Shown here piece after piece: positions 48,556-63,874 of a stretch of 64,000 nt of DNA; the stretch's first letter is position 1; each line of letters begins with the position of its first letter. The stretch comes from an uncultured Candidatus Saccharibacteria bacterium. Lineage in GTDB: Bacteria; Patescibacteriota; Minisyncoccia; Phycocordibacterales; CSBR16-119. The position numbers and the translations under genes were made by a program. The DNA lies in NCBI GenBank assembly GCA_964490365.1, contig CAZBAG010000003.1, positions 18,116-82,115 on the forward strand. The letters are read 5' to 3'. Under the pieces are notes generated by a model, which worked only from the letters and a program-made list of their open reading frames with translations, did no database searches and was not told the origin of the DNA.

Positions 48556-50880
48556 ATGACCACTGCTAAAACCTACAGAGTAAAAGGAATGCACTGCGCG
48601 TCATGCGCCGGCATTATTGAGAAGACTTTCAAAAAGACTGAGGGTGTCCAGTCTGCAGAGGTTAACTATGGGACCGAAACGGCAAAAATTTCATATGACG
48701 AATCAAAAACAAACCCTCATCATCTTTCACAAAAAATAGAAAAGTTCGGATACTCTCTCGCTCTGGATCAAGACAATCCTCATAATCATGCAGGTCCCAC
48801 AGCCGAAGAAATGGGTATGTCTCCGAGCGAACATGCAGCACATCTTGGTCTAAATCAAACCAAGAAAGAAAAATTGGCTGAAGTTGCAGCTCAGAGAATA
48901 CTTGTACTTTCAGCTTTGCCTCTTGCTGTCATTGCAGCCTTTGTTATGGGTTGGGATATTTTTGCTCAGTACGGCCTGGTAGCTGAAATGAGCTATATCA
49001 TCAAAGAGTTTTTTCATCACCTTCTGCCTCTCCTTGCAACATATACGCTCTTTGTTGTTGGTAAGCCTTATCTCCAGGGTTTTTATCGATTCCTTCGCTA
49101 TGGCAAAGCGAATATGGATACACTTATCGGTATAGGAACAGTCGCTGCATTTTTATACAGTTTTGCGGTGACCGCTTTTGAAGATGTCCTCAGACCTTTT
49201 ATAAACGTTGATTATCAATACTACGACGTAACCATAGTTGTCATCACCTTTATTGCTCTTGGCAAATATTTAGAGGCTTGGTCCAAAATAAAAACTGGTG
49301 ATGCAATTGAGAAGCTTCTTAACCTTCAGGCAAAAACTGCTCTTGTGGTCCGAGACGGAAAAGAAATTGAGATTTCAGTAAATGATGTAAAGCATAACGA
49401 TCTCATAATTGTTAAACCAGGAGCAAAGATTCCGGTGGATGGTGTGATAACCGAAGGATCATCTTTTGTAGACGAATCAATGGTTACCGGTGAACCAATG
49501 CCAGCCCAAAAGAAAATCGGAGACTCAGTCGTAGCGGGAACAATCAACACAAACGGATCATTTACATTTAAAGCTACGAAAGTTGGTTCAGAAACTCTAC
49601 TCGCACAAATAATCAAAATGGTTGAAGACGCTCAAGGTAGCAAGGCACCTATTCAAGCATTGGCCGATAAAATTTCATCCGTCTTTGTACCAATTGTCCT
49701 CGTTATCGCATTCCTTACCCTTGGCGCTTGGTTATTCTTCGGATCGCAATATCTTGGTTTTTCTCAAGCGCTTTCATTCGGTCTTGTGTCGTTTGTCGGC
49801 ATACTCGTGATCGCTTGCCCTTGTGCACTTGGTCTCGCAACTCCTACGGCAATTATCGTCGGCGTTGGAAAGGGTGCTAAAGAAGGTATCCTCATTAAAG
49901 ATGCGGCAACACTAGAGAAACTCCACAAGGTAAATACAGTGGTGGTTGATAAGACAGGTACGATCACGAAAGGAAAGCCAGCTCTTGTGGATATTCAAAA
50001 TCTTTCAGATAAAAAGGATGACGAACTTGTATCCATCCTTGCATCGCTTGAAAAGAAATCAGAACACCCGATCGCCCATGCGATCGTAAGCTATGCGCAA
50101 GAGAAAAACATTCGGGTATCTAATATTTCAAATTTCGAGGGCATACAAGGTAAAGGACTTAAGGGAACAATTAGTGGAACTGAATACTTTGTTGGCAATG
50201 CCAAACTCATTAAAGACCTGAGTATTTCATTCGATTCGTCAAAAGTTGAGCAGTTCACAGCTCAAGGAAAAACTCCGGTCATTCTCGCAACTAAAGAAAA
50301 GGTTCTCGGTTTTGTCATGGTGGCCGATGAAATAAAAGCGGAATCGATTGAAGCAGTAAAAAATCTCCACTCGCTTGGTATCAAAGTAGTGATGCTCACC
50401 GGCGATGATGAAAAGGCAGCAAAATACATTGCCTCATTGGTTGGTATTGATGATGTGGTTGCGCACGTACTTCCTGAAGACAAATTGAAAAAGATTGAGG
50501 AGCTGCAGTCACAAGGTCGAGTGGTTGCCATGGCAGGTGATGGTGTAAACGACGCTCCTGCACTCGCTCAAGCTGATGTGGGTATTGCCATGGGGACCGG
50601 AACTGATGTGGCTATCGAATCGGCCGGCATTACACTTCTCGGGGGTGATATTTCAAAGCTCGTAAAAGCTATCAAACTTTCAAAAATGACCATGCGCGGC
50701 ATCAAACAGAATCTCTTCTGGGCTTTCATCTACAATATTGTCGGTATTCCTCTTGCAGCTGGGGCGTTATATCCAGTCTTCGGTTGGCTCCTTAATCCCG
50801 TCTTTGCCGGATTTGCCATGGCGATGTCTTCGGTATCGGTCGTATCAAACTCACTTAGGATTAAAGCTCAAAAACTATAA
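48556..50880 (+). CDS. copA: Copper-translocating P1B-type ATPase
   Basis: N-terminal HMA domain GMHCASCAG, transmembrane CPC motif, DKTGTIT phosphorylation site and GDGVNDAP. Confidence 0.95.
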
Positions 50881-50885
50881 TTATC

Positions 50886-51917
50886 ATGTCTACACAAACA
50901 CAGAAATACACCTTTCACGTTCATGGCATGCACTGCAACTCCTGTGTACTTATGACTGAAAGTGAGATCGGCGATCTGCCGAACGTCACTCATGTTAAAT
51001 CGAGCTTGAAAAATCATTCAGTTCAAGTAATTGGCGACTTTAGAAATAAGACATTGGAACAGATCGCAGAAGAACTTACCGTCCCCCTCAAGCCTCATGG
51101 CTATACTGTGTCAGTTGAAAAACAAAAACATAATGCCAAATGGGGAGACTTTAAAATTGCGATCCCAATCGCACTAAGTTTTGCTGTCCTCTTTGTAGTC
51201 CTGCAGAAACTGGGAATTGTTAACCTAGTGAGCGCAGGCAATGTCACATACGGCACTGCTTTCGTGATCGGTATCATTGCTTCACTTTCAACATGCATGG
51301 CAGTTGTCGGCGGGCTAGTTCTATCAATGTCAGCAACTTTTGCTAAAGAGGGCGACAAGATAAAACCTCAGCTTATGTTCCATGCTGGACGAATAGCCTC
51401 ATTCTTTGTACTCGGTGGAGTAATTGGTGCGATCGGGTCAGCATTTACACTCAATACTTCTGCGACGTTTATCCTGAGTTTGATAATTGGCATAGTCATG
51501 CTCATCCTCGGTATCAATCTTCTCGATACATTCCATTGGGCAAAAAAGTTGCAGCCGTCAATGCCGAAGTTTATTGCTAAGCATGCTCATAGCGTATCAA
51601 AGTTCAATCATACACTTACGCCGCTTCTTGTAGGTATTGTTACTTTTTTCCTGCCATGCGGATTCACACAGTCAATGCAACTTTATACGCTTACCACTGG
51701 TAATTTCCTTCATGGCGGACTGACTATGCTCGCGTTTGCACTTGGAACATTGCCAGTTCTCGCGCTCATTAGTTTTAGCTCATTCAGTATTCAAAAAAGT
51801 TCAAAGGCAGGAGTGTTCTTTAAGACTGCAGGGCTTATTGTGATTATGTTCGCATTATTCAATCTCATTAATAGTCTGGTAGTGATCGGAGTCATACCGC
51901 CAATATTTAACTTCTAG
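50886..51917 (+). CDS. HMA-domain protein fused to a CcdA/DsbD-type thiol-disulfide membrane domain
   Basis: N-terminal GMHCNSCV metal-binding domain. The membrane part has Cys in transmembrane segment 1 (LSTCMAV) and in a later segment (FLPCGF), as in CcdA/DsbD/MerT-like proteins. Confidence 0.6.
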   Translation: MSTQTQKYTFHVHGMHCNSCVLMTESEIGDLPNVTHVKSSLKNHSVQVIGDFRNKTLEQIAEELTVPLKPHGYTVSVEKQKHNAKWGDFKIAIPIALSFAVLFVVLQKLGIVNLVSAGNVTYGTAFVIGIIASLSTCMAVVGGLVLSMSATFAKEGDKIKPQLMFHAGRIASFFVLGGVIGAIGSAFTLNTSATFILSLIIGIVMLILGINLLDTFHWAKKLQPSMPKFIAKHAHSVSKFNHTLTPLLVGIVTFFLPCGFTQSMQLYTLTTGNFLHGGLTMLAFALGTLPVLALISFSSFSIQKSSKAGVFFKTAGLIVIMFALFNLINSLVVIGVIPPIFNF

Positions 51918-51930
51918 TATAATTCTAATC

Positions 51931-52320
51931 ATGAAAGCAACTATTATTTCAGTCATTGTGGCGGTGTCCCTCATCGGGGGAGCTTTCTTGCTTAGCCGAG
52001 GAAGTTCTAGCGATGATAATTCTATTCCCGCAAACAATGTCAGCATCGTGGATGGAAAACAAATAATCGAGATACGAGCAAAAGGCGGATACCGGCCACG
52101 AAAGAGTATTGCGAAAGCCGGCATGCCTACAGTGTTGCGATTCAATACCGCAGGCACATTCGACTGCTCATCCTCGGTACGCATTCCAAGTCTCAATATC
52201 AGCAAAGGTCTGCTACAGTCAGGTTCTACTGACATAGATATTGGTACCGGAAAGCTGGGAACACTTCAGGGTTCATGCGGAATGGGCATGTATCCGTTTG
52301 AAGTTGAGTTTCAAAGTTAA
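51931..52320 (+). CDS. Small secreted cupredoxin-like protein
   Basis: Signal anchor followed by a beta-rich domain with Cys and Met ligand candidates (FDCSSS...GSCGMGMYPFEVEF). Confidence 0.45.
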   Translation: MKATIISVIVAVSLIGGAFLLSRGSSSDDNSIPANNVSIVDGKQIIEIRAKGGYRPRKSIAKAGMPTVLRFNTAGTFDCSSSVRIPSLNISKGLLQSGSTDIDIGTGKLGTLQGSCGMGMYPFEVEFQS

Positions 52321-53348: not shown

Positions 53349-56273
53349 TTAAGGGCCAAACTCTCGTTTTCGAATCTCAACACCCTCCTCGGCTCGTTTT
53401 CGTTCGTGCATGATTCTTACGTTAAGGTATTTTTCGTATTCCACAGCAAAATTCTTTACGGCGGTATGAGGATCGGTCTTAAGTTTCTGTGCATCCGCTT
53501 TCTTTGCTTCGTAGGCTGTTACAAAACCGTCTTCTCCCATGACTACACCTGTTTGAGAAAGACTACCGAATAGCGAACCCCGAATCTCATCATATTTGGC
53601 ATGGTCATGGTATTTTTTAGCGATTGCTTTTACTACGCCAAATAGAAAATCCTCCCCTTGGCGTTTATTAATTATGGATAAAACTATATCCAGTTCTTCT
53701 TTTCCACCATTATTTACAAGATCAACCAGGGACTGCTCAAAGGTGGGGCTGAAACTTGAAAAGATTTCTTCCAAAAGATGGCTAGCTTCCCATCGAAACA
53801 ACCATTTGTTTTTCTTGCCACCTTTACTGAACCATGCCAAAAGCATAGGTATAATTTTTGTCTCATTTTTCTTTAAGGCAGCATTGAGTTTGTGAAAATT
53901 AAAGGGAACAGCATCGTATCTGTCATATATGTTTCTCTCACGTTTTGATTTAAGTTCGACTCTTTTGTAGAAAAAATCAATTATCTTTTCAGGATACTTT
54001 TCAGCAAGCGGCATCAGAACCTCCTCGATATGATAGTCGATGTGTGGGAACATCAATAAGTTTTCAACAAGTACGTCAAAGTCTTTTTCAGAAAAATCCT
54101 TTAAAATAGATTCTCCTCGAAACCAGACGTTCTGAATCCACCAGTAGTTTTTATTTTTTGTAAGCTCTTTAAGTGTCTTTATAAATAAAGCTCTCGTGTT
54201 TTTATATTTTGGGTAGTTTCTGACTATTGAACCTGTGATGTTGTTAAGGGCTTGCAAATCCTTCTTTGCTTTTGCCTTAGTGAATATTTTATTCAAGATT
54301 TTTCCATCAATTTCTTCCACATAGTCAAATAGGCGTGCTGAAACCGCTAAATGCTTATCATCCATGGTCCATTCACTGACAATCTGTTTTGCCTTCTTCT
54401 TTTGAGGGCCTGACCAAATTCCAGCTATAAGGTGAATGAGAAACGGATCAAGCTCTGGAGTATCGATGAGTTGCAGAGCAAGGTTGGTTTTTTGCTTTCC
54501 AAGCTCATAAAGGAATTTGTTGAAATATTGAAATTCGCCTGGCTCGACGCTGGAGTAGTTTTTAATAATTTTTAGAATTTTAAGTTTCCATTCAGGAATA
54601 TTTTCCTGGGTAATATCCTGCACATATTGAGATACCTGATTGTTTCTTGTTTTTGCTGCTTTACCCCAATCCATTTCCTCGTCAAAACGTCCATCATAGC
54701 CAACAAGCACTCTGTACATTTGGTAATCCTGATTTGAGTGGATTATGGCATCTAAATCTCCAATACGAGCAAAAGACTCTCTCTTAAATCTCCTTATAAG
54801 CCAGTATGACTGCTCCTCAATTTCTTTCATGATCTCATTTTCAGCAGATGGGAGTATAGAAATATAAAAATCAATTAGCTCATTAGTGTTTTCGATAATG
54901 ACCTTCTCCATTTCTTCGTTCTTTTCTCCTCGATCTGAAGTGTAAGATGCTTGCTGTAGTCTTTTCAGCACTTTCTCTTTTAGACTGACGCTGGGAGCAA
55001 GGAAGTAGAGCTTTTTACCAAGTGCCAGCGTTCTTTTTCTGACCTCGAGAAGTGGTTTGTCGGGGTGTAAGGCTCCGAAATGAAAAGTGAATGTTTTATA
55101 ATCAGTCATCTCATGACCCTCAAAAGAAGGGTCGAGAAGGTGACCAACTGCTTCGGCAGCAAGATCAAATCGTTTTAATGTCTCAGCTTCACTCCACGCT
55201 TCAATTTTTTCCAAAAGAAGAATTTGCATTTGATATCCTATCTGTTTCAATGCCCTAAGATCGTACTGTGCAAAATGCTCGAATACTTTCAATACCTTTG
55301 CTTTAATATCCTTGTCTGTATCTTCAGCAATCTCTGCTAACAAATCAAAAGCTTCTATTGGTCTATGAAATCTAAGTTTTTCGATTATATCGAGACACAC
55401 GATTGCCACATCTTTATATGAATGACCGGCAAGCTTACCAAAAGGGGTCTCCATTGGCTCAGTTTTGGTATTTTTTGCTTTGGCGATTACAGCTTTAATT
55501 ATCGTTGCCGCATTAAGGTGTTCTGGAGTCTTGTCTCCAAATTCTTCGATGTATTTTAAAAGGAGCTTTAAATTTTCGTGCAATTCATTATTTGATTTTG
55601 AATCAAGTACGCTCTTAAGAAAGGACTCGTCAAAGATTTTTTTACCTTCCTTTACCTTTTGAATCTCTTTTGCAATGAAGTCAAAAGTATACTGGGCTTC
55701 CTTGATATGATTCTTCATCGTATCTGCCAGGCGTTTTTGTAGAGATTCAAAGGTATGTGAATCAAAGTTTTTGATTTCATCATCAGGTTTATAGGTAGAA
55801 TCATGAGCCATTTCTGACCATGCATGATAAAGGACTGTGGTGAGCTGAATTTCGCATTTTAGTCCATTGAATCTTTGATACTTTGCTGATTTCAAAAGGT
55901 CGTCTTTTAATTTAACAATCAAATGTGATGCATTGTAACCATCTGTAGAAAATCTAAGGTTATGTTTGACAACCTCGAATTCTTTGAATAACAGGTTTGC
56001 AAATCTATCAATATTATCTGTATAAAAAATAACTCTGCAGCCAGAAAGATCATCTATTTCAAGTAAATCTTTAACATTTACCTTGCCACTCTCCAGCTTT
56101 CTTTTTAAGTGATCAGGGTCTTTTTCTCTACTTGCAACCATTTGGTATCCAAATGATTCATTTTTTAATATACTCTCCAAAATTGATTTTACTTCGAGAG
56201 CAAAATCATGAAAGTCCTCCTTTCTCTTTTTATAGCTTTCAATTAAGGTTTTAATATTTTCTTCTTTTGACAT
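53349..56273 (-). CDS. 974-aa protein with an N-terminal RelA/SpoT-type nucleotidyltransferase (alarmone-synthetase-like) domain fused to an approximately 800-aa all-helical C-terminal region
   Basis: RelA/SpoT synthetase-fold motifs are present: DDLSGCRVIFY (compare DxxGxRVI), YNASHLIVKL (compare YRSLHTAV) and CEIQLTTVLYHAWSEMAHDSTYK (compare EIQIRTxxMHxxAExGxAAHWxYK). The remainder is helical with no recognised domain. Confidence 0.75.
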   Translation of the reverse strand: MSKEENIKTLIESYKKRKEDFHDFALEVKSILESILKNESFGYQMVASREKDPDHLKRKLESGKVNVKDLLEIDDLSGCRVIFYTDNIDRFANLLFKEFEVVKHNLRFSTDGYNASHLIVKLKDDLLKSAKYQRFNGLKCEIQLTTVLYHAWSEMAHDSTYKPDDEIKNFDSHTFESLQKRLADTMKNHIKEAQYTFDFIAKEIQKVKEGKKIFDESFLKSVLDSKSNNELHENLKLLLKYIEEFGDKTPEHLNAATIIKAVIAKAKNTKTEPMETPFGKLAGHSYKDVAIVCLDIIEKLRFHRPIEAFDLLAEIAEDTDKDIKAKVLKVFEHFAQYDLRALKQIGYQMQILLLEKIEAWSEAETLKRFDLAAEAVGHLLDPSFEGHEMTDYKTFTFHFGALHPDKPLLEVRKRTLALGKKLYFLAPSVSLKEKVLKRLQQASYTSDRGEKNEEMEKVIIENTNELIDFYISILPSAENEIMKEIEEQSYWLIRRFKRESFARIGDLDAIIHSNQDYQMYRVLVGYDGRFDEEMDWGKAAKTRNNQVSQYVQDITQENIPEWKLKILKIIKNYSSVEPGEFQYFNKFLYELGKQKTNLALQLIDTPELDPFLIHLIAGIWSGPQKKKAKQIVSEWTMDDKHLAVSARLFDYVEEIDGKILNKIFTKAKAKKDLQALNNITGSIVRNYPKYKNTRALFIKTLKELTKNKNYWWIQNVWFRGESILKDFSEKDFDVLVENLLMFPHIDYHIEEVLMPLAEKYPEKIIDFFYKRVELKSKRERNIYDRYDAVPFNFHKLNAALKKNETKIIPMLLAWFSKGGKKNKWLFRWEASHLLEEIFSSFSPTFEQSLVDLVNNGGKEELDIVLSIINKRQGEDFLFGVVKAIAKKYHDHAKYDEIRGSLFGSLSQTGVVMGEDGFVTAYEAKKADAQKLKTDPHTAVKNFAVEYEKYLNVRIMHERKRAEEGVEIRKREFGP

Positions 56274-56289
56274 GAATATTTGTTTACGT

Positions 56290-56308
56290 GTTGATAACTG
56301 GGGTTGAT
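56290..56308. promoter_or_regulatory. Direct repeat GTTGAT-N7-GTTGAT in the 65-bp divergent promoter region, just upstream of a TATAAT box (56327-56332): candidate operator for the LexA-fusion protein
   Basis: GTTGATAACTGGGGTTGAT. It lies between the RelA/SpoT-fusion start (56273, minus strand) and the LexA-methylase start (56339). Confidence 0.35.
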
Positions 56309-56338
56309 GACTTTCTATTTATTTTCTATAATATCACC

Positions 56339-57799
56339 ATGATTACAAAGAAGCAAAAAAGTGTCCTAGATTTCATCACTGATTATCAAAAGAGTAAGGG
56401 GTATGCTCCCGCTCTTGAGGAGATAAGGAAGAAATTTAAACTTGCTTCTGTTTCAACTGCTCATCATCATGTGACAAAGCTTCGTGATTTGGGATATCTT
56501 GAGAAAGAAGAGAACAAACCTAGAGCAATTGATATCGTGGATAGAGAGATGATGGTAAAAATCCCTCTTCTTGGAACTATTGCAGCAGGACAACCCATTG
56601 AAGCTATACAAAATAAAGAGACTATTGCTGTGGCTAAAAGCAAAATACCTTCCTCTTCTGAGGTCTATGCTTTACGTGTTGTCGGAAATAGTATGATTGA
56701 GGAAAATATTAATGATGGAGACATTATTTTAGTAAAAAATCAGCAGACAGCAGAGAATGGACAGAAAGTTGTAGCTCTTATAGATAATCAAGAAACAACA
56801 CTAAAGAAATTTTATAAAGAAAAAGGACATATTCGACTCCAGCCAGCAAATAAGGATATGGAACCTCTTATTTTTAAGAGTACTAAAGATGTATCTGTTC
56901 AAGGCGTAGTGCTTGATGTGATAAAAGAACAAAGGTCCCTTCCTCTAGAGTTACCAGAACAAAAAGAATTAGAAAAATTTAAGGAACTTCCTTTAAATAA
57001 ATTTATATGTGGTGACGCGATACATTATCTTCGAAGACTACCAGATAGGTCAGTAGATCTAATTGTCGCAGATCCTCCTTACAATCTTTCTAAGGGAAGT
57101 AATATCCGTTTTGATAACCAAGTTAATAAACTTAAGGGTTTTGGTGGTACCTGGAATAAAGTTATGGAGCAATGGGATAGCATGCCAATGGCGGATTATT
57201 TTGAATTTACTATTAAGTGGGTACAGGAAGCAAAAAGAGTTTTAAAACCTACAGGTTCTATATGGGTATTTGGAACTTACCACAATATTGGAATTATTAA
57301 CTTTATTTTCCAAACTCTCGGCATCGAAATTATCAATGAAGTAGTTTGGTATAAACGTAATGCTTTTCCAAATCTAGCAGGGCGAAGATTTACAGCAAGT
57401 CACGAGACATTATTGTGGGGTCATGTTGGAAATGAAAAGAGACAATATTACTTTGACTATAAACAATCTAAAAGTTATGCAGACCCTTCTGATTTATTAA
57501 AGGCGGGAGGAAAACAGATGCGTACTGTTTGGGATATTCCAAACAACAAAGGAGCCGGGGAGATTAGCTTTGGTAAGCACCCAACCCAAAAACCATTGAG
57601 TGTTTGTAAAAGGATAATCTCTTTAACTTCTAAACCAGGTGATGTTGTCGTAGCTCCTTTTGGAGGTGCTGGAAGTGAGTGTGTTGCAGCAAAAGAATTA
57701 GGTAGAAATTATTTAGGGTTTGAGCTTGATCAGCAGTATGTGGATATAGCACAGAAACGACTTTCAGCTGTTCGTAATCAAGATACACTTTTCTCATAA
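56339..57799 (+). CDS. Fusion of a complete LexA-type repressor (wHTH plus S24 autopeptidase) to an N6-adenine/N4-cytosine DNA methyltransferase (beta class, DPPY)
   Basis: LexA half: wHTH (LEEIRKKFKLASVSTAHHHVTKLRDLGYLE), cleavage site LLGTIAAGQP, Ser motif LRVVGNSM and Lys motif QKVVALIDNQETTLKKF. Methylase half: DLIVADPPYN (motif IV), a VVVAPFGGAGSE C-terminal AdoMet motif, beta-class order. Start taken at ATG 56339. Confidence 0.85.
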   Translation: MITKKQKSVLDFITDYQKSKGYAPALEEIRKKFKLASVSTAHHHVTKLRDLGYLEKEENKPRAIDIVDREMMVKIPLLGTIAAGQPIEAIQNKETIAVAKSKIPSSSEVYALRVVGNSMIEENINDGDIILVKNQQTAENGQKVVALIDNQETTLKKFYKEKGHIRLQPANKDMEPLIFKSTKDVSVQGVVLDVIKEQRSLPLELPEQKELEKFKELPLNKFICGDAIHYLRRLPDRSVDLIVADPPYNLSKGSNIRFDNQVNKLKGFGGTWNKVMEQWDSMPMADYFEFTIKWVQEAKRVLKPTGSIWVFGTYHNIGIINFIFQTLGIEIINEVVWYKRNAFPNLAGRRFTASHETLLWGHVGNEKRQYYFDYKQSKSYADPSDLLKAGGKQMRTVWDIPNNKGAGEISFGKHPTQKPLSVCKRIISLTSKPGDVVVAPFGGAGSECVAAKELGRNYLGFELDQQYVDIAQKRLSAVRNQDTLFS

Positions 57800-57803
57800 T
57801 GTC

Positions 57804-58610
57804 ATGATTCTAAAACCCTTTATAAAATGGACCGGAAGTAAACGGTCCCAAGCTGAAGAAATAACCTCTTATTTTCCTAAAGAGATTGATACTTACTACG
57901 AACCGTTTTTAGGTAGTGGTGCAATTTTAGGACATCTGAAACCAAAAAAGGCTGTAGGTGGAGATGTAAATAAACCCCTCATTGAGCTTTGGAAAATATT
58001 GAAGGAAGATCCAGAAAAAGTTGCAAAGGAGTATACAAAACATTGGCAATCATTACAGGATGAGGGTCACTTATATTTCTATAAAATAAGAGAACGGTTC
58101 AATAAAAAGCAATCACCAATAGACTTTCTTTTTCTAACCAGGACATGTGTAAATGGTCTTATTCGCTATAACAAAAATGGAGAATTTAATAATTCACTAC
58201 ACCATACACGTAAGGGAATGAATCCTGAGCAACTAAGAAAGATCATTCTTCAGTGGGCTATTCTTATTAAAAGCTACAGATTTTCAGATCAATCTTACGA
58301 GATAACAACAAAAGACGCTGGTAAAAATGATTTTGTGTATCTGGACCCTCCTTATGCAAACACTGGGACTAGATATTTTGGAGGAATCGATTATGACAAT
58401 TTCATTAGTTACCTTGAACAGTTAAATAAGAAGGGTATAAAATTCGCTCTTTCATTTGACGGTACCAGAGGAGATAAATCCTTTGTCGTTGAGATTCCAA
58501 AACATTTATACAAACGGCACATTCTCGTTCACTCGGGAAACTCTGCTTTTAATAAGGTCCAGAACGGAAAGGTGGAGAAAGTTCACGAATCTCTTTACCT
58601 GAATTATTGA
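57804..58610 (+). CDS. Dam-family (D12 class) N6-adenine DNA methyltransferase
   Basis: FIKWTGSKRS, YYEPFLGSGAI (AdoMet site) and LDPPYANTG motifs in alpha-class order. Confidence 0.85.
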   Translation: MILKPFIKWTGSKRSQAEEITSYFPKEIDTYYEPFLGSGAILGHLKPKKAVGGDVNKPLIELWKILKEDPEKVAKEYTKHWQSLQDEGHLYFYKIRERFNKKQSPIDFLFLTRTCVNGLIRYNKNGEFNNSLHHTRKGMNPEQLRKIILQWAILIKSYRFSDQSYEITTKDAGKNDFVYLDPPYANTGTRYFGGIDYDNFISYLEQLNKKGIKFALSFDGTRGDKSFVVEIPKHLYKRHILVHSGNSAFNKVQNGKVEKVHESLYLNY

Positions 58611-60625
58611 TGCAGCACTAAACTAATAATTCCCTTAAATCTATCAGCAAGTTTTTGAAGGGTCGGAATAAGTATAAGCCCAGTCTCTTTTGCTGTTATA
58701 TGTATTATGGTCACCTTATTATCGGTGTTAAATTCTACACCCAGAGCAATATCAGATTTGCTTACCTTTAAGGTTGATTTCAGATCTTTTTCATTTTGAT
58801 AGCGAAAAGCAACACCAGATAAACCAGCCAGGTCGTTAGTATATTCATCTACAGTTCTTAACCAATCGTCTTTACTATACTCACGAAAAGCTATTGGTTT
58901 TTTACTTAAAAGCGCGTGTACATATTTTATCAATCGCGGCCCAATACTTTTCTCTAATGTAAAAGATGTATCTTTCGATTCCATCGAGAGTAAAATCTTA
59001 TCGTTTATGAATTGTATGATGTGGTCTGGCCGTTTAGAAGATTTACCAGATACTCTTGGAAGCGAAGTCCATCGCAATTCTAGTTTCTTGGTAGGTTCGT
59101 AAATGCTTATGCCACTCCAATCGCCACCTGGCGGATTACACAATGATTCATATACTCCTTGCGTTAACGCATTTGAGAAAAGTAGATGCAATACAGCATC
59201 AACATCATGTTCACCAAAATTAGGTATTTCTTTTGATGCAGGTAGAGCCTTCTTTTCAAACACCTTATCGTTTGGACTAACTAAAAGGCCATAATTTTTC
59301 AGTGAACTACTTGTACTACTATCCACTAGTATTCCATTACTAAGATTAACGATTGCTTCCCAAAGTCCATTAATTGAAGCAAGTTTTCTCATATCTTTTT
59401 CAAGCAAGGTCCAAGTAGATTGTTTGGCAGGACCATATACTACAGTAAGCAAATCTACATCTTCAATTCCAAATATCATTCGAGCTAAGGGAACTAGTCC
59501 TCGATCAGGTCGAGAGTCGTCACCTCGAGGTTTAAAGCCGGCTACCCAGACACAGACTAAAGGTTTTTCAGATTTTGAAACCCATTGAATGAACTCTGCA
59601 CCAGCCTTTTCGCCATAGATTCTAGTGATTTCTTTGCCAAATTCTGCCCGTTTATCGGTGGGGATAATACATATTGGCATTTCTCTAGAACCTATCGCTC
59701 TGGCCCCATTCTTTATAGTTGTTTCGAGTAGATTCTTAAAAGTGGGCGTTAGAGTTTTGATACCAGTTTTCTTATTCCATGGCATTGCTTTTTTAATCAA
59801 CCAGTTTAACTTTTCTGCACCAGTTTTTTGAGAATAAAGTTCGGTCCATTCAGTTGCAGTCAGAACATCTGATCTTTTACGCTGTGTGGTAAGTATCTCT
59901 AAAATTTTAAGAACCTTTGTCTCGACTTGAGTGTGCGCTTCCTTAAAATCAGTCGAAAGCAAAATTCCTCTCACTATTTCAATTGATTCCTTTGTTCCAA
60001 AGCAATCTTTAAAAATCTCAATGATTTTCTGATCGCTAGATGGACTTGGTATATAAACGGGTAGTGACACCGAATTCCTACTTGCACCTAATACTGCATA
60101 CGCAAATGGAACTAGTGGGTTTGGAAATCGTGCAGCCTTAATTTTTCGATCCGAATCGAGCTCCTGGCCACCTAATTCAGTAAAATACAAATAAGGGATA
60201 CCAGCATATGCCAAAGCAAGAGCTCGCCCTGTTCTTTGCCACGCATTATTGCCTGCAGGGAGTGCCCCACTGAATTCTAGAGCTAGAATAGGAACCTCAC
60301 ACTCTTCTCCTCCACTTATTTCTAATTTTGTAATAATTGCATCAGGAGCTTCTCGCAAGCTTCCGCCAAGAGATGCGATATGATCTGTAAGCGCAAAATT
60401 CCAACGACCATAACCCGCAAAAAACTGTACTGTAAAATCCTCACCGTTTCCGGCAATGAATTTGTATTTTGGAGCGAAGGCCGGTCCAGATATTAATTCT
60501 GGCTGGCTACCACCTAAAGAATTTACTATAAGCTTTAATGCGCTCTCACATTCTAAAATATTGTCTCCATGGATACGCAACTGGTGCTGGGTCATTGAAA
60601 TGTATTGAAAAATATTGTATTTCAA
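58604..60625 (-). CDS. Putative restriction endonuclease partner of the two methyltransferases (673 aa, family not recognised)
   Basis: Convergent with, and overlapping by 7 nt, the Dam-like gene. Large enough for an enzyme cleaving outside its site or a fused specificity domain. The call rests on position only. Confidence 0.4.
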   Translation of the reverse strand: MKYNIFQYISMTQHQLRIHGDNILECESALKLIVNSLGGSQPELISGPAFAPKYKFIAGNGEDFTVQFFAGYGRWNFALTDHIASLGGSLREAPDAIITKLEISGGEECEVPILALEFSGALPAGNNAWQRTGRALALAYAGIPYLYFTELGGQELDSDRKIKAARFPNPLVPFAYAVLGASRNSVSLPVYIPSPSSDQKIIEIFKDCFGTKESIEIVRGILLSTDFKEAHTQVETKVLKILEILTTQRKRSDVLTATEWTELYSQKTGAEKLNWLIKKAMPWNKKTGIKTLTPTFKNLLETTIKNGARAIGSREMPICIIPTDKRAEFGKEITRIYGEKAGAEFIQWVSKSEKPLVCVWVAGFKPRGDDSRPDRGLVPLARMIFGIEDVDLLTVVYGPAKQSTWTLLEKDMRKLASINGLWEAIVNLSNGILVDSSTSSSLKNYGLLVSPNDKVFEKKALPASKEIPNFGEHDVDAVLHLLFSNALTQGVYESLCNPPGGDWSGISIYEPTKKLELRWTSLPRVSGKSSKRPDHIIQFINDKILLSMESKDTSFTLEKSIGPRLIKYVHALLSKKPIAFREYSKDDWLRTVDEYTNDLAGLSGVAFRYQNEKDLKSTLKVSKSDIALGVEFNTDNKVTIIHITAKETGLILIPTLQKLADRFKGIISLVLHQ

Positions 60626-60788: not shown

Positions 60789-61060
60789 AAAAGTAATGCA
60801 CACCGATTTGCATATTTTATGGCATTAGGATTACAGCAGTCCTTTAGGGCAAAAGTAATGCACCATTTTTTGCTCTTTTGGGACAGTACGATTACAGCAA
60901 TCCTTTAAGGTAAAAGTAATTCCTATATTTAGACACTTTTGCATCTATAGGATTAAGTAGTTCTTTGGTCCAAGTAATTCCTGCAGTTAGAAAATTATAG
61001 GACCTTAGAATAAACAAATCGGCGATCCAAAAGTAATGCACGCAATTTTGCACGAAATTG
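60789..61060. repeat. Iteron-like array: 4-5 degenerate tandem units of about 60 bp, each containing AAAAGTAATGCAC and (C)GATTACAGCARTCCTTTARGG
   Basis: AAAAGTAATGCAC occurs at 60789, 60851 and 61029, with variants AAAAGTAATTCC at 60912 and AAGTAATTCC at 60972. GATTACAGCAGTCCTTTAGGG is at 60830 and GATTACAGCAATCCTTTAAGG at 60891. An interlocking hairpin lies at 61088-61136. Confidence 0.55.
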
Positions 61061-61326
61061 GATCTACGATACATAACACTTCCAGTTGCGCGGAAAGAGC
61101 TGAGTCACTCGCAACTGGGACTCAGCTCTTTCTGTTTTCAGGAAGTCTGATACAAGGTCGAACACCCTCATGCTAAGCAAACAAGCCCTAGAAGAATATA
61201 AGGAAATTCATAAGCAGGAAACCAATACGATCCTAGCTGATGAAGTCTTGCTTGATGAGGCAATTAATCTCCTCACGCTTTTTGATCGCGTCTATCGGCC
61301 GATCAAGAAAGTGTGGCTACAAGAAT

Positions 61327-62238
61327 ATGGAAGGAATCACACTCGATCCAGAATGGGAACTACCAAACAGAAAAGAAGAGATTGCGCATCAGTATCATCT
61401 GAAGAAAATACAAGAACTTCAACAGATGGTAGATCGGTCCAAGTTGCGGGGTAAACGCAGGGTCACACGATTTTTTGTCGATAATGAATATGTGGAGAAC
61501 GGCTATATGGAAAAATTGCCGAAGCTCTGTACCTTGGTGTATCAAGGACTCTTATATCATGGCAATACCGAAACGCAGACAGCGTGGCCGAGTTTTAAGA
61601 AACTCACCGGACACACTGGAGAAAAGAATCGAAACTACATATCAAATGCTCTTCGGTTGCTCAAAGAGTGCGGCATCATTGGTGTGGTCCAGTGCAAGAA
61701 AGGATTTAAAACCTTAAACCTTTACTATTTTCAGTCGACCGAATATTGGATTAGTCTCGAACATACTACTAAACGTCTTAAGCTTACCGATAGCCTTGCG
61801 CAGTATCCAAACGTGACCCTCCGTAGTATCAAAAGACGTGGTGTCCGTAGGAAGAACGTTGATACTCTAACTAACCAAATAAATAACAATCCGAATTCTG
61901 TAACTAGCATCGGAGATGTCTTAGCAAGGAGAATGCAGAAATGGCAGAAAAGCCCAGAGGTTGCTATTCCAGAGGGTTCTCGCAATACTGTCGTTCGCAC
62001 AGCATATGAGGGAGATGTAGAGGTAAGTACCATACACTTAGATAGCCCAGATATACCCGAGGAAAATGGTGAAAAAACGGTACTCCGTAGTGTTCCAGAA
62101 GATACCACGCAGGTTCCCGTAATAACGGGAAATTTACGGGAAAAAATCGCTGAATTGGATACCACGCAAACACACCATGAATTAGCCCTAGAAGACATAA
62201 CCAAAGAAGATATTGGACCAGGTAGCGCAACATTATAA
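61327..62238 (+). CDS. Winged-helix replication-initiator-like protein (HTH_36/RepA-like)
   Basis: LVYQGLLYHGNTETQTAWPSFKKLTGHTGEKNRNYISNALRLLKECGIIGV reads as a Rep-type winged helix. Start taken at ATG 61327. An overlapping upstream ORF 61170-61454 lies in another frame. Confidence 0.45.
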   Translation: MEGITLDPEWELPNRKEEIAHQYHLKKIQELQQMVDRSKLRGKRRVTRFFVDNEYVENGYMEKLPKLCTLVYQGLLYHGNTETQTAWPSFKKLTGHTGEKNRNYISNALRLLKECGIIGVVQCKKGFKTLNLYYFQSTEYWISLEHTTKRLKLTDSLAQYPNVTLRSIKRRGVRRKNVDTLTNQINNNPNSVTSIGDVLARRMQKWQKSPEVAIPEGSRNTVVRTAYEGDVEVSTIHLDSPDIPEENGEKTVLRSVPEDTTQVPVITGNLREKIAELDTTQTHHELALEDITKEDIGPGSATL

Positions 62239-63874
62239 AACCATGAATAAAACACAACCAATCAAATACTTTCTCTATGCCCGTAAATCGAGCGAGGCAG
62301 AAGATCGACAAGCAGCATCCATCGATGCTCAAAAGGACGAACTCTTAAAGATCGCTAAAGAACAAGGGCTGGTTATCGTTGATATCTTGGAAGAATCACA
62401 ATCAGCCAAGAAGCCAGGAAGACCAGTATTCAACAAAATGCTTGAGAGAATCTATAAAAGCGAAGCCAACGGTATTGTATGTTGGAAATTGGACCGACTA
62501 GCCCGTAATCCAGTAGACGGTGGACAGATAAGTTGGATGTTGCAGCAGAGTGTGATAGCTCAGATTGTTACCTTCGGCCGAACGTATTATCCAACTGACA
62601 ACGTTCTCATGATGCAGGTTGAGCTTGGAATGGCCAACCAATACATCCGAGATCTTTCAGTAAACGTAAAGAGAGGACTCGCTAAGAAGGTCAGAGAAGG
62701 TTGGCTTCCAAGCGGGGCACCGATTGGGTACATGAGCACACCCGATAGAGATAAAGGATTTAAAACAATCAGTATCGATCCAAACCGATTCCCAGTGGTC
62801 CGCAGACTCTTTGACCTTATGCTTACCGGCACTTACACTGTGGCTCAAATTTGGAATATATCCCGTAAGGAGTTGAATTTGAAAACATATCAGCGAAGAA
62901 ATATTGGTGGTAAGCATCTTTCAAAAAGTGCAGTGTATGCAATTTTAAGCAATCACTTTTACTACGGATGGTTTGAGTACCCATATAAAAGCGGAGAATG
63001 GCATAAGGGCGCACATGAGCCGATGATTACCGAAGATGAGTTTAATAAGGTTCAAGTACTTATGGGGCGCAAGACAACTCCTCGGCTTGAGAAGAATTTA
63101 AGTTTTGCTTTTACAGGGCTTATGAAGTGCGGCACCTGTGGTTGTAGTATTACGGCTCAAGCCAAAGTTAAGCGATGTAAGAATGGCAACGTCCACCATT
63201 ATGTCTACTACAACTGCACCAAGAAGAAAGTCGATACCAACTGTCCAGAGCGATGTGTCGAACTAAAGGATCTGACACTCGATATCAAAGAAAAAATAAG
63301 TGAGATCACTATTTCAGAAAAGTTTAAGAACTGGGCTATCAAGCATCTCCATGTAATGAGAAAGAATGAAGCTGACAGTGATACGTTGGTCCTTAAAGGA
63401 AAGCATAAAGAACTTGAAGAAGTTACTAAGAATTTGCAGTCACTTACGCTTAATTTCACCTCACCAAAGAACCAAGACCGATTATTGATATCTGATGATG
63501 AATACCAGAACCTCAAAGCCGGAATGGTTAAACGAAAGCTAATTCTTGAAGATGAGCTCAAGGTCCAAAAGAAACAGGTCCTTGAGTGGGTGGAACTTAC
63601 CGAGCGAACCTTTGATTTTGCATGTTATGCCCATATTTGGTTTGAAAAAGGAGACGATAAGACGAGGAGGGCGATACTTTCATGTTTAGGCTCGAACCTC
63701 ACCCTAAAAGGCAAAAAACTCTTTGTTAATTACCATTCTTTCATCAAGACGATGATGAAAAGTCGTCAGGCGGTTGAAGAAGAATTAGAGAAGGTTAGAA
63801 CCTCTGAAAAGCGAGTCTATAAAAGACAAAACCCCACAAATCGTGAGGTTTCGTCACTAGGGCTCCCCGAGTAG
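62213..63874 (+). CDS. Large serine recombinase (resolvase catalytic domain, recombinase domain and zinc ribbon)
   Basis: N-terminal YARKSSEAEDRQAASIDAQ...CWKLDRLARN with the catalytic Ser, a recombinase domain and a CGTCGC...YYNC zinc ribbon. The protein is 553 aa. The last five codons are templated by a tRNA 3'-end-like sequence. Confidence 0.9.
   Translation: MDQVAQHYKTMNKTQPIKYFLYARKSSEAEDRQAASIDAQKDELLKIAKEQGLVIVDILEESQSAKKPGRPVFNKMLERIYKSEANGIVCWKLDRLARNPVDGGQISWMLQQSVIAQIVTFGRTYYPTDNVLMMQVELGMANQYIRDLSVNVKRGLAKKVREGWLPSGAPIGYMSTPDRDKGFKTISIDPNRFPVVRRLFDLMLTGTYTVAQIWNISRKELNLKTYQRRNIGGKHLSKSAVYAILSNHFYYGWFEYPYKSGEWHKGAHEPMITEDEFNKVQVLMGRKTTPRLEKNLSFAFTGLMKCGTCGCSITAQAKVKRCKNGNVHHYVYYNCTKKKVDTNCPERCVELKDLTLDIKEKISEITISEKFKNWAIKHLHVMRKNEADSDTLVLKGKHKELEEVTKNLQSLTLNFTSPKNQDRLLISDDEYQNLKAGMVKRKLILEDELKVQKKQVLEWVELTERTFDFACYAHIWFEKGDDKTRRAILSCLGSNLTLKGKKLFVNYHSFIKTMMKSRQAVEEELEKVRTSEKRVYKRQNPTNREVSSLGLPE

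Follow-up and report, generated by a model that had tools for sequence, protein, structure and literature searches.

The LexA-methyltransferase fusion gene

This report concerns a gene at positions 56339 to 57799 of a 64,000-nucleotide stretch of contig CAZBAG010000003.1 from an uncultured Candidatus Saccharibacteria bacterium; the whole stretch is referred to below as the window, and position 1 is its first letter. The product of the gene is a complete LexA repressor, comprising a winged helix-turn-helix (wHTH) and an S24 autoprotease domain, joined to a beta-class DPPY N6/N4 methyltransferase (MTase). The gene, designated LexA-M1, is followed by a second methyltransferase gene (M2) and by a convergent gene for a BsmI-like endonuclease (R). 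The features of LexA-M1 are listed here.

56339..57799, + strand: LexA-M1 fusion gene, ATG at 56339, 486 aa
56342-56527, + strand: wHTH, residues 2-63, Pfam LexA_DNA_bind, E=1.9e-15
56564-56911, + strand: S24 domain, residues 76-191, Pfam Peptidase_S24, E=1e-30
56585-56590, + strand: codons of Ala83-Gly84, putative scissile bond, motif IAAGQP
56690-56692, + strand: codon of Ser118, putative nucleophile, motif GNSM
56804-56806, + strand: codon of Lys156, putative general base, motif TLKKF
about residues 198-222: disordered linker between the LexA part and the MTase
57053-57757, + strand: N6_N4 MTase domain, residues 239-473, full-length match to Pfam N6_N4_Mtase (PF01555), E=1.1e-50
57071-57082, + strand: DPPY, MTase motif IV, residues 245-248
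residues 441-446: FGGAGS, S-adenosylmethionine-binding motif I (FxGxG)

An initial annotation, made from the letters of the window alone, had described this product as an N-terminal LexA with wHTH, autocleavage site and catalytic Ser and Lys, followed by a beta-class DPPY methyltransferase, and both halves of that description were borne out by domain searches, in which LexA_DNA_bind, Peptidase_S24 and N6_N4_Mtase were all matched and all of the named motifs were found. The NCBIfam lexA equivalog model TIGR00498 scored 183.2 bits over residues 2-197, against a cut-off of 110.95, and the LexA half is collinear from end to end with the LexA structures 3k2z and 1jhh in the PDB. For the MTase half, the closest PDB structure is that of CcrM (6pbd, E=1.5e-53); its score of 227 bits with the NCBIfam CcrM equivalog NF050803 falls below the cut-off of 830, which places it outside that equivalog. 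The DPPY motif precedes FxGxG, the order that defines the beta class. An AlphaFold2 model of the monomer, computed from a 30-sequence alignment, consisted of three confidently folded units and a disordered linker at residues 198-207, with pLDDT values of 85-89 for the wHTH helices. The frame from 56339 to 57799 is continuous, with neither a stop nor a frameshift that might divide it into two genes.

The LexA moiety is apparently self-cleaving, to judge from these residues. From the topology of the protein, cleavage at Ala83-Gly84 would part the DNA-binding domain from an S24-MTase fragment, and this is consistent with the earlier proposal that self-cleavage would uncouple DNA binding from the methylase.

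Promoter and predicted LexA operator

The region upstream of LexA-M1 contains the following elements.

56304..56332, + strand: methylase operon promoter, -35 TTGATG at 56304-56309, 17-nt spacer, -10 TATAAT at 56327-56332
56310..56331, + strand: predicted LexA operator, TTTCTAT at 56312-56318, N4, TTTCTAT at 56323-56329
56289..56297, - strand: degenerate DnaA-box-like element TTATCAACA, one mismatch to TTATCCACA

The promoter was the best sigma-70-like match between 56000 and 61300, agreeing at 10 of 12 positions, by consensus match only. The predicted operator occupies the promoter spacer and overlaps the -10 box. We found it by aligning upstream regions of fusion genes by eye and then by pattern: [T/G]TTC-N7-[T/G]TTC was present upstream of 42 of 52 fusion genes, compared with 1.3 in shuffled sequences (maximum 5). 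The operator is a direct repeat with the consensus ACTTTCGGTTTACTTTCGGTTA, and many stand-alone relatives of the LexA module carry such a repeat upstream as well. With a position weight matrix trained without the window sequence, the operator scored 25.0 bits and was the top site in the 64 kb, where the next site scored 16.9 and the maxima of shuffled windows ranged from 9.7 to 19.5. Across 716 kb of related loci (designated by L numbers), the matrix located 47 sites at the promoters of the LexA-type genes themselves and 3 marginal sites elsewhere. The known alphaproteobacterial LexA box is a direct repeat, GTTC-N7-GTTC (PMC8565304), and the geometry of the fusion operator agrees with it. On this comparative evidence, the direct repeat at 56312-56329 would be a LexA-type operator for autoregulation.

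A different operator had been proposed initially, namely the direct repeat GTTGAT-N7-GTTGAT. This repeat is physically present (56290-56295 and 56303-56308); its first copy lies mostly inside the DnaA-box-like sequence TGTTGATAA, where relatives have TGTGGATAA, and its second copy overlaps the -35 hexamer. In relatives of 88% identity, however, neither hexamer is kept, the aligned sequence being TGTGGATAAC...TTTGTATAC, whereas TTTCTAT-N4-TTTCTAT is identical. We rejected the GTTGAT repeat as operator because it is unconserved.

The matrix scans detected no further significant LexA box in the window or in the 716 kb of flanking loci, so that a wider regulon was not found within that range, and no typical SOS genes were identified among the annotated open reading frames (ORFs) of the window.

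We also noted a conserved GTCAA(T/G) element, 5-15 nt before the ATG and in the usual place of a Shine-Dalgarno sequence, at L093, L095, L097, L100, L103, L106-L108, L110, L114, L122, L128, L131, L132, L151, L153 and L167. At some of these loci a second, inverted LexA box stands between the -10 box and GTCAA(T/G). The element is not present in the window.

The restriction-modification cassette

The initial annotation had placed the fusion in a restriction-modification (R-M) module, and the two genes that adjoin it agree with that assignment.

57804..58610, + strand: M2, D12/Dam-class N6-adenine methyltransferase, 268 aa, Pfam MethyltransfD12 1.9e-41, TIGR00571 4.2e-52
58604..60595, - strand: BsmI-like Type IIS endonuclease, 663 aa from the ATG at 60595, PDB BsmI 9f38, PADLOC REase_II

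M2 is co-directional with LexA-M1 and starts 4 nt past its stop codon. The endonuclease gene is convergent to M2, which it overlaps by 7 nt. Although the mechanically called ORF of the endonuclease starts at 60625, we preferred the ATG at 60595; the resulting length of 663 aa agrees with that of the genes called in the 88%-identical relatives. The protein showed full-length homology to BsmI (9f38; residues 6-636, E=5e-90) and matched the PADLOC REase_II profile PDLC03434 (1.7e-123). BsmI is a monomeric endonuclease with two catalytic sites, which have the motifs PD..E-X12-QR and PD..E-X-K (PMC11889245), and both motifs are kept in the alignment of the window protein. In the PADLOC MTase_II profile PDLC03302, which has 626 positions, the MTase domain of the fusion covers positions 8-263 and M2 covers 362-626. 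Because they together cover one profile, the two proteins would be the counterparts of the pair of methylase activities, one for each strand, in a system of the BsmI/Mva1269I type. Avoidance of GAATGC, the sequence recognized by BsmI and Mva1269I, was examined as a clue to specificity; this sequence is not depleted in the 64-kb window (20 observed against 22.3 expected).

At L001, L092 and L247-249 the same three genes, LexA-M1, M2 and R, are present with 55-88% identity. Their left-hand neighbours vary between contigs, and a recombinase or integrase often adjoins them. The trio behaves like a mobile cassette, bounded on the left by its promoter. By these sequence relationships, the gene at 56339-57799 encodes M1, the first methylase in a mobile R-M cassette of Type IIS and of the BsmI/Mva1269I kind, with M2 as the predicted methylase for the other strand.

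The BsmI-type cassette exists in three regulatory grades: with the full LexA-M1, with a wHTH-M1 from which S24 has been cleanly deleted, and with M1 alone. The variants that lack S24 or the whole module are found at L164, L165 and L166 (proteins P0094, P0110 and P0071), and P0102 is an MTase-only homologue. The S24-less L165 and L166 retain the operator, with scores of 23.8 and 22.1 bits. The three grades are natural controls for the role of self-cleavage.

LexA-methylase fusions in Patescibacteria

The initial annotation knew of no fusion of a full LexA to a methylase. A search for further fusions among 5.8 billion proteins showed instead that the architecture is abundant in public data, mostly under partial names. 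All three domains were present in 113 cluster representatives of full length, at identities down to 48%, and their named sources were Paceibacterota, Parcubacteria, Kerfeldbacteria, Woesebacteria and Roizmanbacteria. The Ala-Gly bond, Ser, Lys and DPPY are invariant in 113 of 113 family members, as are positions I81 and A83 in the family alignment. The linkers between the modules are variable and always in frame.

A metagenome scan was carried out with the LexA half alone, and the matches were then classified by partner. Close relatives of the LexA module (at least 47% identity) were nearly all the N-terminus of proteins of 430-890 aa in which the partner varied. By Pfam, the partner was always a DNA methyltransferase, drawn from several N6_N4 subfamilies, C5-cytosine (PF00145), D12/Dam, and gamma N6_Mtase/Eco57I/TaqI-like enzymes. 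One LexA module is combined, according to these assignments, with four structurally unrelated MTase classes. In 83 of 83 LexA modules, which included all partner classes and stand-alone relatives, the Ala-Gly, Ser and Lys residues were invariant. A search seeded with a LexA-C5 protein gave 120 matches at 66% identity or more, all 120 of those listed being fused, so that there are at least 120 clusters of this type; those with names were Patescibacteria, as was every other named source of a fusion, and at NCBI these C5 fusions often go by the name 'transcriptional repressor LexA' alone. The independent assemblies that contain fusions came from NCBI, JGI, ENA and Logan. Taken together, these searches establish that hundreds of LexA-methylase fusions are present in Patescibacteria, the bacteria of the candidate phyla radiation (CPR).

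When a profile of the LexA half was used for an exhaustive HMMER search of 1.84 billion representatives at 50% identity, 38 of the best 51 matches were at least 378 aa long and carried the module from residue 1 to about residue 198. Very few of these best 51 were about 200 aa in length, and ordinary LexA proteins of that size prevailed only at lower scores. A profile search of genome contigs made with the full-length family alignment was of a different kind, in that its patterns fell in the MTase half and CcrM-like stand-alone methylases dominated; only L004 was a fusion.

The LexA and methylase modules have discordant histories, as judged by sequence comparison. The LexA half of the window protein is 80% identical to that of L086, whose methylase shows no detectable tblastn similarity. 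For L001 and L092 the identity to the window protein is only 61-63% in the LexA half, as against 70-77% in the methylase. In a rough neighbour-joining tree, the methylase classes were interspersed inside one fused clade. As for gene order, a convergent ORF lies downstream in 35 of the 37 complete fusions with enough downstream sequence, in 28 directly and in 7 after a second co-directional ORF, with a median gap of -4 nt. Recognisable restriction endonucleases accounted for 4 of 10 sampled convergent ORFs and belonged to unrelated families (Bsp6I-like, EcoRV-like, MvaI/BcnI-like and PDLC03445). At L109 (689-5079) the design is split: lexA is followed 4 nt later by an 839-aa methylase with C5 and gamma-N6 Eco57I-like domains and then by a convergent ORF of 395 aa. 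A LexA that truly stands alone, among unrelated neighbours, is found at L123, and its operator is of the same type. That the LexA module would have a regulatory rather than a catalytic role is suggested by the four unrelated MTase classes, the discordant histories, the convergent ORFs and the split arrangement at L109. Repeated assembly with four unrelated methylase folds also argues that the linkage between LexA and methylase has been selected.

In the databases, the 470-530-aa fusions P0011, P0024, P0056, P0127, P0158, P0186, P0190 and P0196 are labelled 'transcriptional repressor LexA' at NCBI, and fusions are labelled 'site-specific DNA-methyltransferase' at JGI. Because such automated names hide half of the protein, any survey of CPR genomes will arrive at wrong figures for SOS regulons and R-M content alike.

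DnaA-box-like elements

The degenerate element at 56289-56297 has counterparts at many of the related promoters. A perfect DnaA-box consensus (TTATCCACA/TGTGGATAA) was found upstream of 29 of 52 fusion genes, against 0.1 expected from shuffling, and the box is about 110-fold denser upstream of lexA-type genes than elsewhere in the same loci. It stands at discrete spacings from the LexA box, either abutting it or 12-17 nt away. At the position aligned to 56289-56297, the box of the 88%-identical relatives is perfect. Besides the window, with its one mismatch, the loci concerned are L003, L086, L088, L091, L096, L099, L113, L115-L118, L122, L128, L131, L132, L135, L138, L142, L150, L151, L160, L165 and L247-249. 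In most of these promoters a perfect DnaA box accompanies the LexA box, and the same is seen at some stand-alone lexA genes (L109, L123, L154). The pairing suggests that lexA-type genes in these bacteria may be under dual control by DnaA and LexA, with DnaA as the putative ligand of the element.

A model for regulation by LexA-M1

Probably, although with considerable room for doubt, LexA-M1 represses its own M1-M2 operon, and RecA-stimulated self-cleavage would lift this repression and so raise methylation after DNA damage. That the protein binds DNA and is cleaved, in which direction it regulates and to what physiological end are what we infer in this model, which runs as follows. LexA-M1 would form a dimer through its S24 domain and bind TTTCTAT-N4-TTTCTAT in the spacer and -10 region of its own promoter, repressing the operon by the autorepression logic of the known methylases SsoII, EcoRII and ScrFI, which carry a helix-turn-helix (HTH). 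In a naive cell, which contains no repressor, the operon would be fully on and methylation would be established first. In an established cell, DNA damage would give rise to RecA-ssDNA filaments, including those from breaks that the endonuclease of the cassette itself introduces where sites are under-methylated. The filaments would stimulate self-cleavage at Ala83-Gly84, which would sever the wHTH from the S24-MTase fragment; repression would be lost and methylase synthesis would rise. Since M2 and R lie tail to tail with no spacer, read-through or antisense transcription may in addition work against expression of the endonuclease. Overall, self-restriction would be held in check by a feedback that SOS sets off, comparable for Type II systems to restriction alleviation.

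Several observations are consistent with this model. Methylases that repress their own promoter through an N-terminal DNA-binding domain include SsoII, Ecl18kI, EcoRII and ScrFI, and unbalanced R-M activity induces SOS (both PMC3874152). The strict conservation of the catalytic apparatus through many independent fusions is hard to explain unless cleavage is relevant, and we count it in favour of the model that the S24-less variants of the same cassette retain the operator. The idea in the initial annotation that R-M expression is tied to DNA damage is made plausible by the invariance of the cleavage residues (113/113 and 83/83) together with the LexA-type operator at the gene's own promoter. 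More generally, the hundreds of fusions suggest that Patescibacteria may link self-protective DNA methylation to the DNA-damage response.

Other points weigh against the model. No LexA or DnaA box lies upstream of the endonuclease gene and, because a LexA box is missing there, any effect on R would have to come from the presumed convergent interference alone. GAATGC is not depleted in the window, as described above. More methylase during phage-induced SOS could protect the phage DNA, which would be counter-productive, and the S24-less variants show that cleavage is dispensable for the working of the cassette. Self-cleavage of LexA in E. coli is followed by degradation of both fragments; were the S24-MTase fragment degraded by analogy, the amount of methylase protein could fall. 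The C-terminal fusion might hinder dimerisation of LexA. Finally, binding, cleavage and SOS induction are predictions from sequence, and the organisms are uncultivated.

A wider interpretation may be placed around the model, one that we put forward tentatively and consider doubtful as a whole. According to it, Patescibacterial R-M systems of many unrelated types have repeatedly captured the host LexA as a covalent N-terminal methylase module; the cassette would at once belong to the SOS regulon and supply LexA to it, and may be the sole source of LexA in some reduced genomes; the paired DnaA box and LexA box would couple methylation to replication status and damage; and the whole would constitute an undescribed Type II circuit against autoimmunity.

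It is unlikely, in our judgement, that the fusion is the principal global SOS LexA of the cell, controlling recA, uvr and other repair genes genome-wide with the methylase as an accessory. The LexA half does exceed the TIGR00498 cut-off, its operator is of the type found at genuine stand-alone LexA genes of related organisms (L123, L111, L112), fused modules dominate their clade, and long proteins prevail among the best 51 HMMER matches. Such a role is difficult to reconcile, however, with a gene that resides in a mobile cassette beside a serine recombinase, with different flanks in each genome, with modules that have been shuffled among methylase classes, with the existence of true stand-alone LexA genes within the same clade, and with the lack of other significant LexA boxes in the window and the 716 kb of flanks. 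The two interpretations are compatible, in that a cassette-borne LexA that represses its own operon could also bind host SOS boxes.

We regard as similarly improbable a role for the LexA module as an uncleaved device for DNA binding and dimerisation, comparable to a controller protein or an SsoII-type HTH, that serves autoregulation and the timing of establishment with no damage input. The wHTH-MTase variants without S24 retain both partner genes as well as the operator, an MTase-only homologue (P0102) exists, and there is good documentation of methylases that repress themselves and have no protease domain (PMC3874152). Yet the Ala-Gly bond and the Ser/Lys dyad should drift in an uncleaved protein, and they are invariant at identities down to about 41% and across independent fusions.

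Still less probable is a suicide switch, in which the cleaved S24-MTase fragment would be degraded, the antitoxin-like methylase would be lost, and the endonuclease would kill the damaged or infected cell. Cleaved E. coli LexA has an end that is recognised by ClpX, and the ...IAA end that the N-terminal fragment of the fusion would have, with its invariant I81 and A83, resembles it. The cassette lies among genes of the defence type, and R-M systems are known to behave as toxin-antitoxin pairs (PMC3874152). Methyl groups persist on DNA, however, so that killing would need replication, and derepression would raise synthesis of M1 and of the unfused M2 at the same time.

To an origin of the fusion by frameshift or misassembly, for which there is only the general possibility that attends metagenome-derived sequence, we give virtually no credence, because the 113 full-length cluster representatives share all three domains in independent assemblies, at least 120 further clusters have the C5 MTase, the frame is continuous and the linkers never leave it.

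Comparison with known systems

R-M systems are the main known defence of CPR bacteria. How Type II systems avoid cutting the host chromosome at unmethylated sites that arise through repair or recombination is poorly understood, and the only alleviation mechanism known to have been studied well acts by proteolysis and is confined to Type I. If the model is right, an enzyme that unites methylase and SOS-responsive repressor in one chain would be a simple solution to self-restriction.

The fusion resembles LexA itself (TIGR00498; 1jhh, 3k2z) in the full-length collinear wHTH, the Ala-Gly bond, the Ser/Lys dyad, the S24 fold and the predicted autoregulatory operator over its own promoter. It differs in its C-terminal DNA methyltransferase of about 290 aa, in its location in a mobile R-M cassette instead of a housekeeping locus, and in that no wider regulon was detected. 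With M.SsoII, M.Ecl18kI, M.EcoRII, M.ScrFIA and C proteins it shares an N-terminal DNA-binding domain and an operator over the methylase promoter, and by analogy it may share their part in the balance of M and R and in establishment. Those proteins have a small HTH, lack a protease or dimerisation domain and receive no signal, whereas the complete LexA of the fusion would add an input from damage. The likeness is one of functional analogy, as the wHTH and S24 of the fusion are not homologous to the SsoII-type HTH.

The cassette appears, by sequence, to be akin to BsmI/Mva1269I (GAATGC) in the full-length homology of the endonuclease with both catalytic motifs and in having one N6_N4-type and one D12-type adenine methylase. 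It differs in that M1 and M2 are separate genes as opposed to a single protein in one PADLOC profile, in the LexA extension of M1, and in the unavoided GAATGC of the window. In Type I restriction alleviation of EcoKI and in the LexA-repressed loci symE, tisB, dinJ-yafQ and yafNO, a potentially self-toxic nuclease or toxin is likewise coupled to the damage response, limiting autoimmunity. Those systems act by ClpXP proteolysis of the restriction subunit or through the host LexA in trans, whereas here the sensor and repressor is covalently part of the protective enzyme. CcrM (6pbd), while it has DPPY, the beta-class order and the closest solved structure, differs from the fusion in being an orphan cell-cycle methylase with a C-terminal domain that the fusion lacks; the latter is R-M-associated and far below the CcrM equivalog cut-off.

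The new element is the presumably signal-responsive protease domain, which comes with a complete LexA as the predicted regulatory module of an autoregulatory Type II methylase. What was unexpected is the pattern of the family, with four methylase folds, invariant cleavage residues and a promoter with paired LexA and DnaA boxes. A search of full-text literature, with subscription literature outside its range, found no description of LexA-methylase fusions. The study of the Patescibacterial SOS network by Sanchez-Osuna, Barbe and Erill (2017, Environ Microbiol 19:3465) may have described the direct-repeat LexA box before, and possibly also these proteins. The LexA module could also serve in engineering as a compact damage-inducible switch.

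Neighbouring genes and other features of the window

The genes on either side of the cassette are listed here.

53349-56273, - strand: divergent 974-aa protein with a weak RelA/SpoT-like nucleotidyltransferase N-terminus, NCBIfam YjbM 5e-6, PADLOC candidate defence family PDC-S33 2.7e-10
61240-62238, + strand: HTH_36 protein, by Pfam
62213-63874, + strand: large serine recombinase, by Pfam

The long C-terminal region of the 974-aa protein had no family match. Co-regulation of this divergent gene with the fusion from a shared promoter region had been suggested initially. The gene stands beside none of the relatives examined, including the 88%-identical ones, where a DUF4238 gene takes its place, and the 65-bp gap contains no minus-strand promoter match. 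We abandoned the shared promoter because the neighbour is never conserved; co-regulation, which no observation supports, would at most be peculiar to this one locus. Possibly the 974-aa protein serves defence on its own account within the island.

The HTH_36 protein and the serine recombinase (61240..63874) probably make up the module that gives the island its mobility. Beside the same cassette there is likewise a serine recombinase or integrase at L001 (14829-16412), L164 (125-1282), L165 (1183-2547) and L166 (5493-6495), and near other fusions. L164 also has a Shedu SduA gene, and L247/L249 have HicAB. From the flanking serine recombinases and tyrosine integrases, and from the SduA and HicAB genes, we place the cassettes in mobile defence islands. 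A phage origin was considered and is unlikely, with one close relative only among 2.9 million viral contigs.

Between the endonuclease and HTH_36 genes, at 60789-61052, there are five tandem copies of a unit of about 60 nt that contains AAAGTAAT[G/T]C. The array lies 170-440 nt upstream of the endonuclease start and does not occur in the syntenic cassettes of L001, L092 and L164-166; it could represent iterons, a recombinase site or a regulatory array. The G+C fraction of the window falls to 0.35-0.37 over 54-60 kb. The remainder of the window is ordinary chromosome, with genes for TypA, RNase J, SecA, DnaE, pyruvate kinase, CTP synthase and copper resistance. The copper-handling cluster, at 48556-52320 and directly upstream of the island, encodes a P-type ATPase with an HMA domain, an HMA-DsbD_2 membrane protein and a cupredoxin-like protein.

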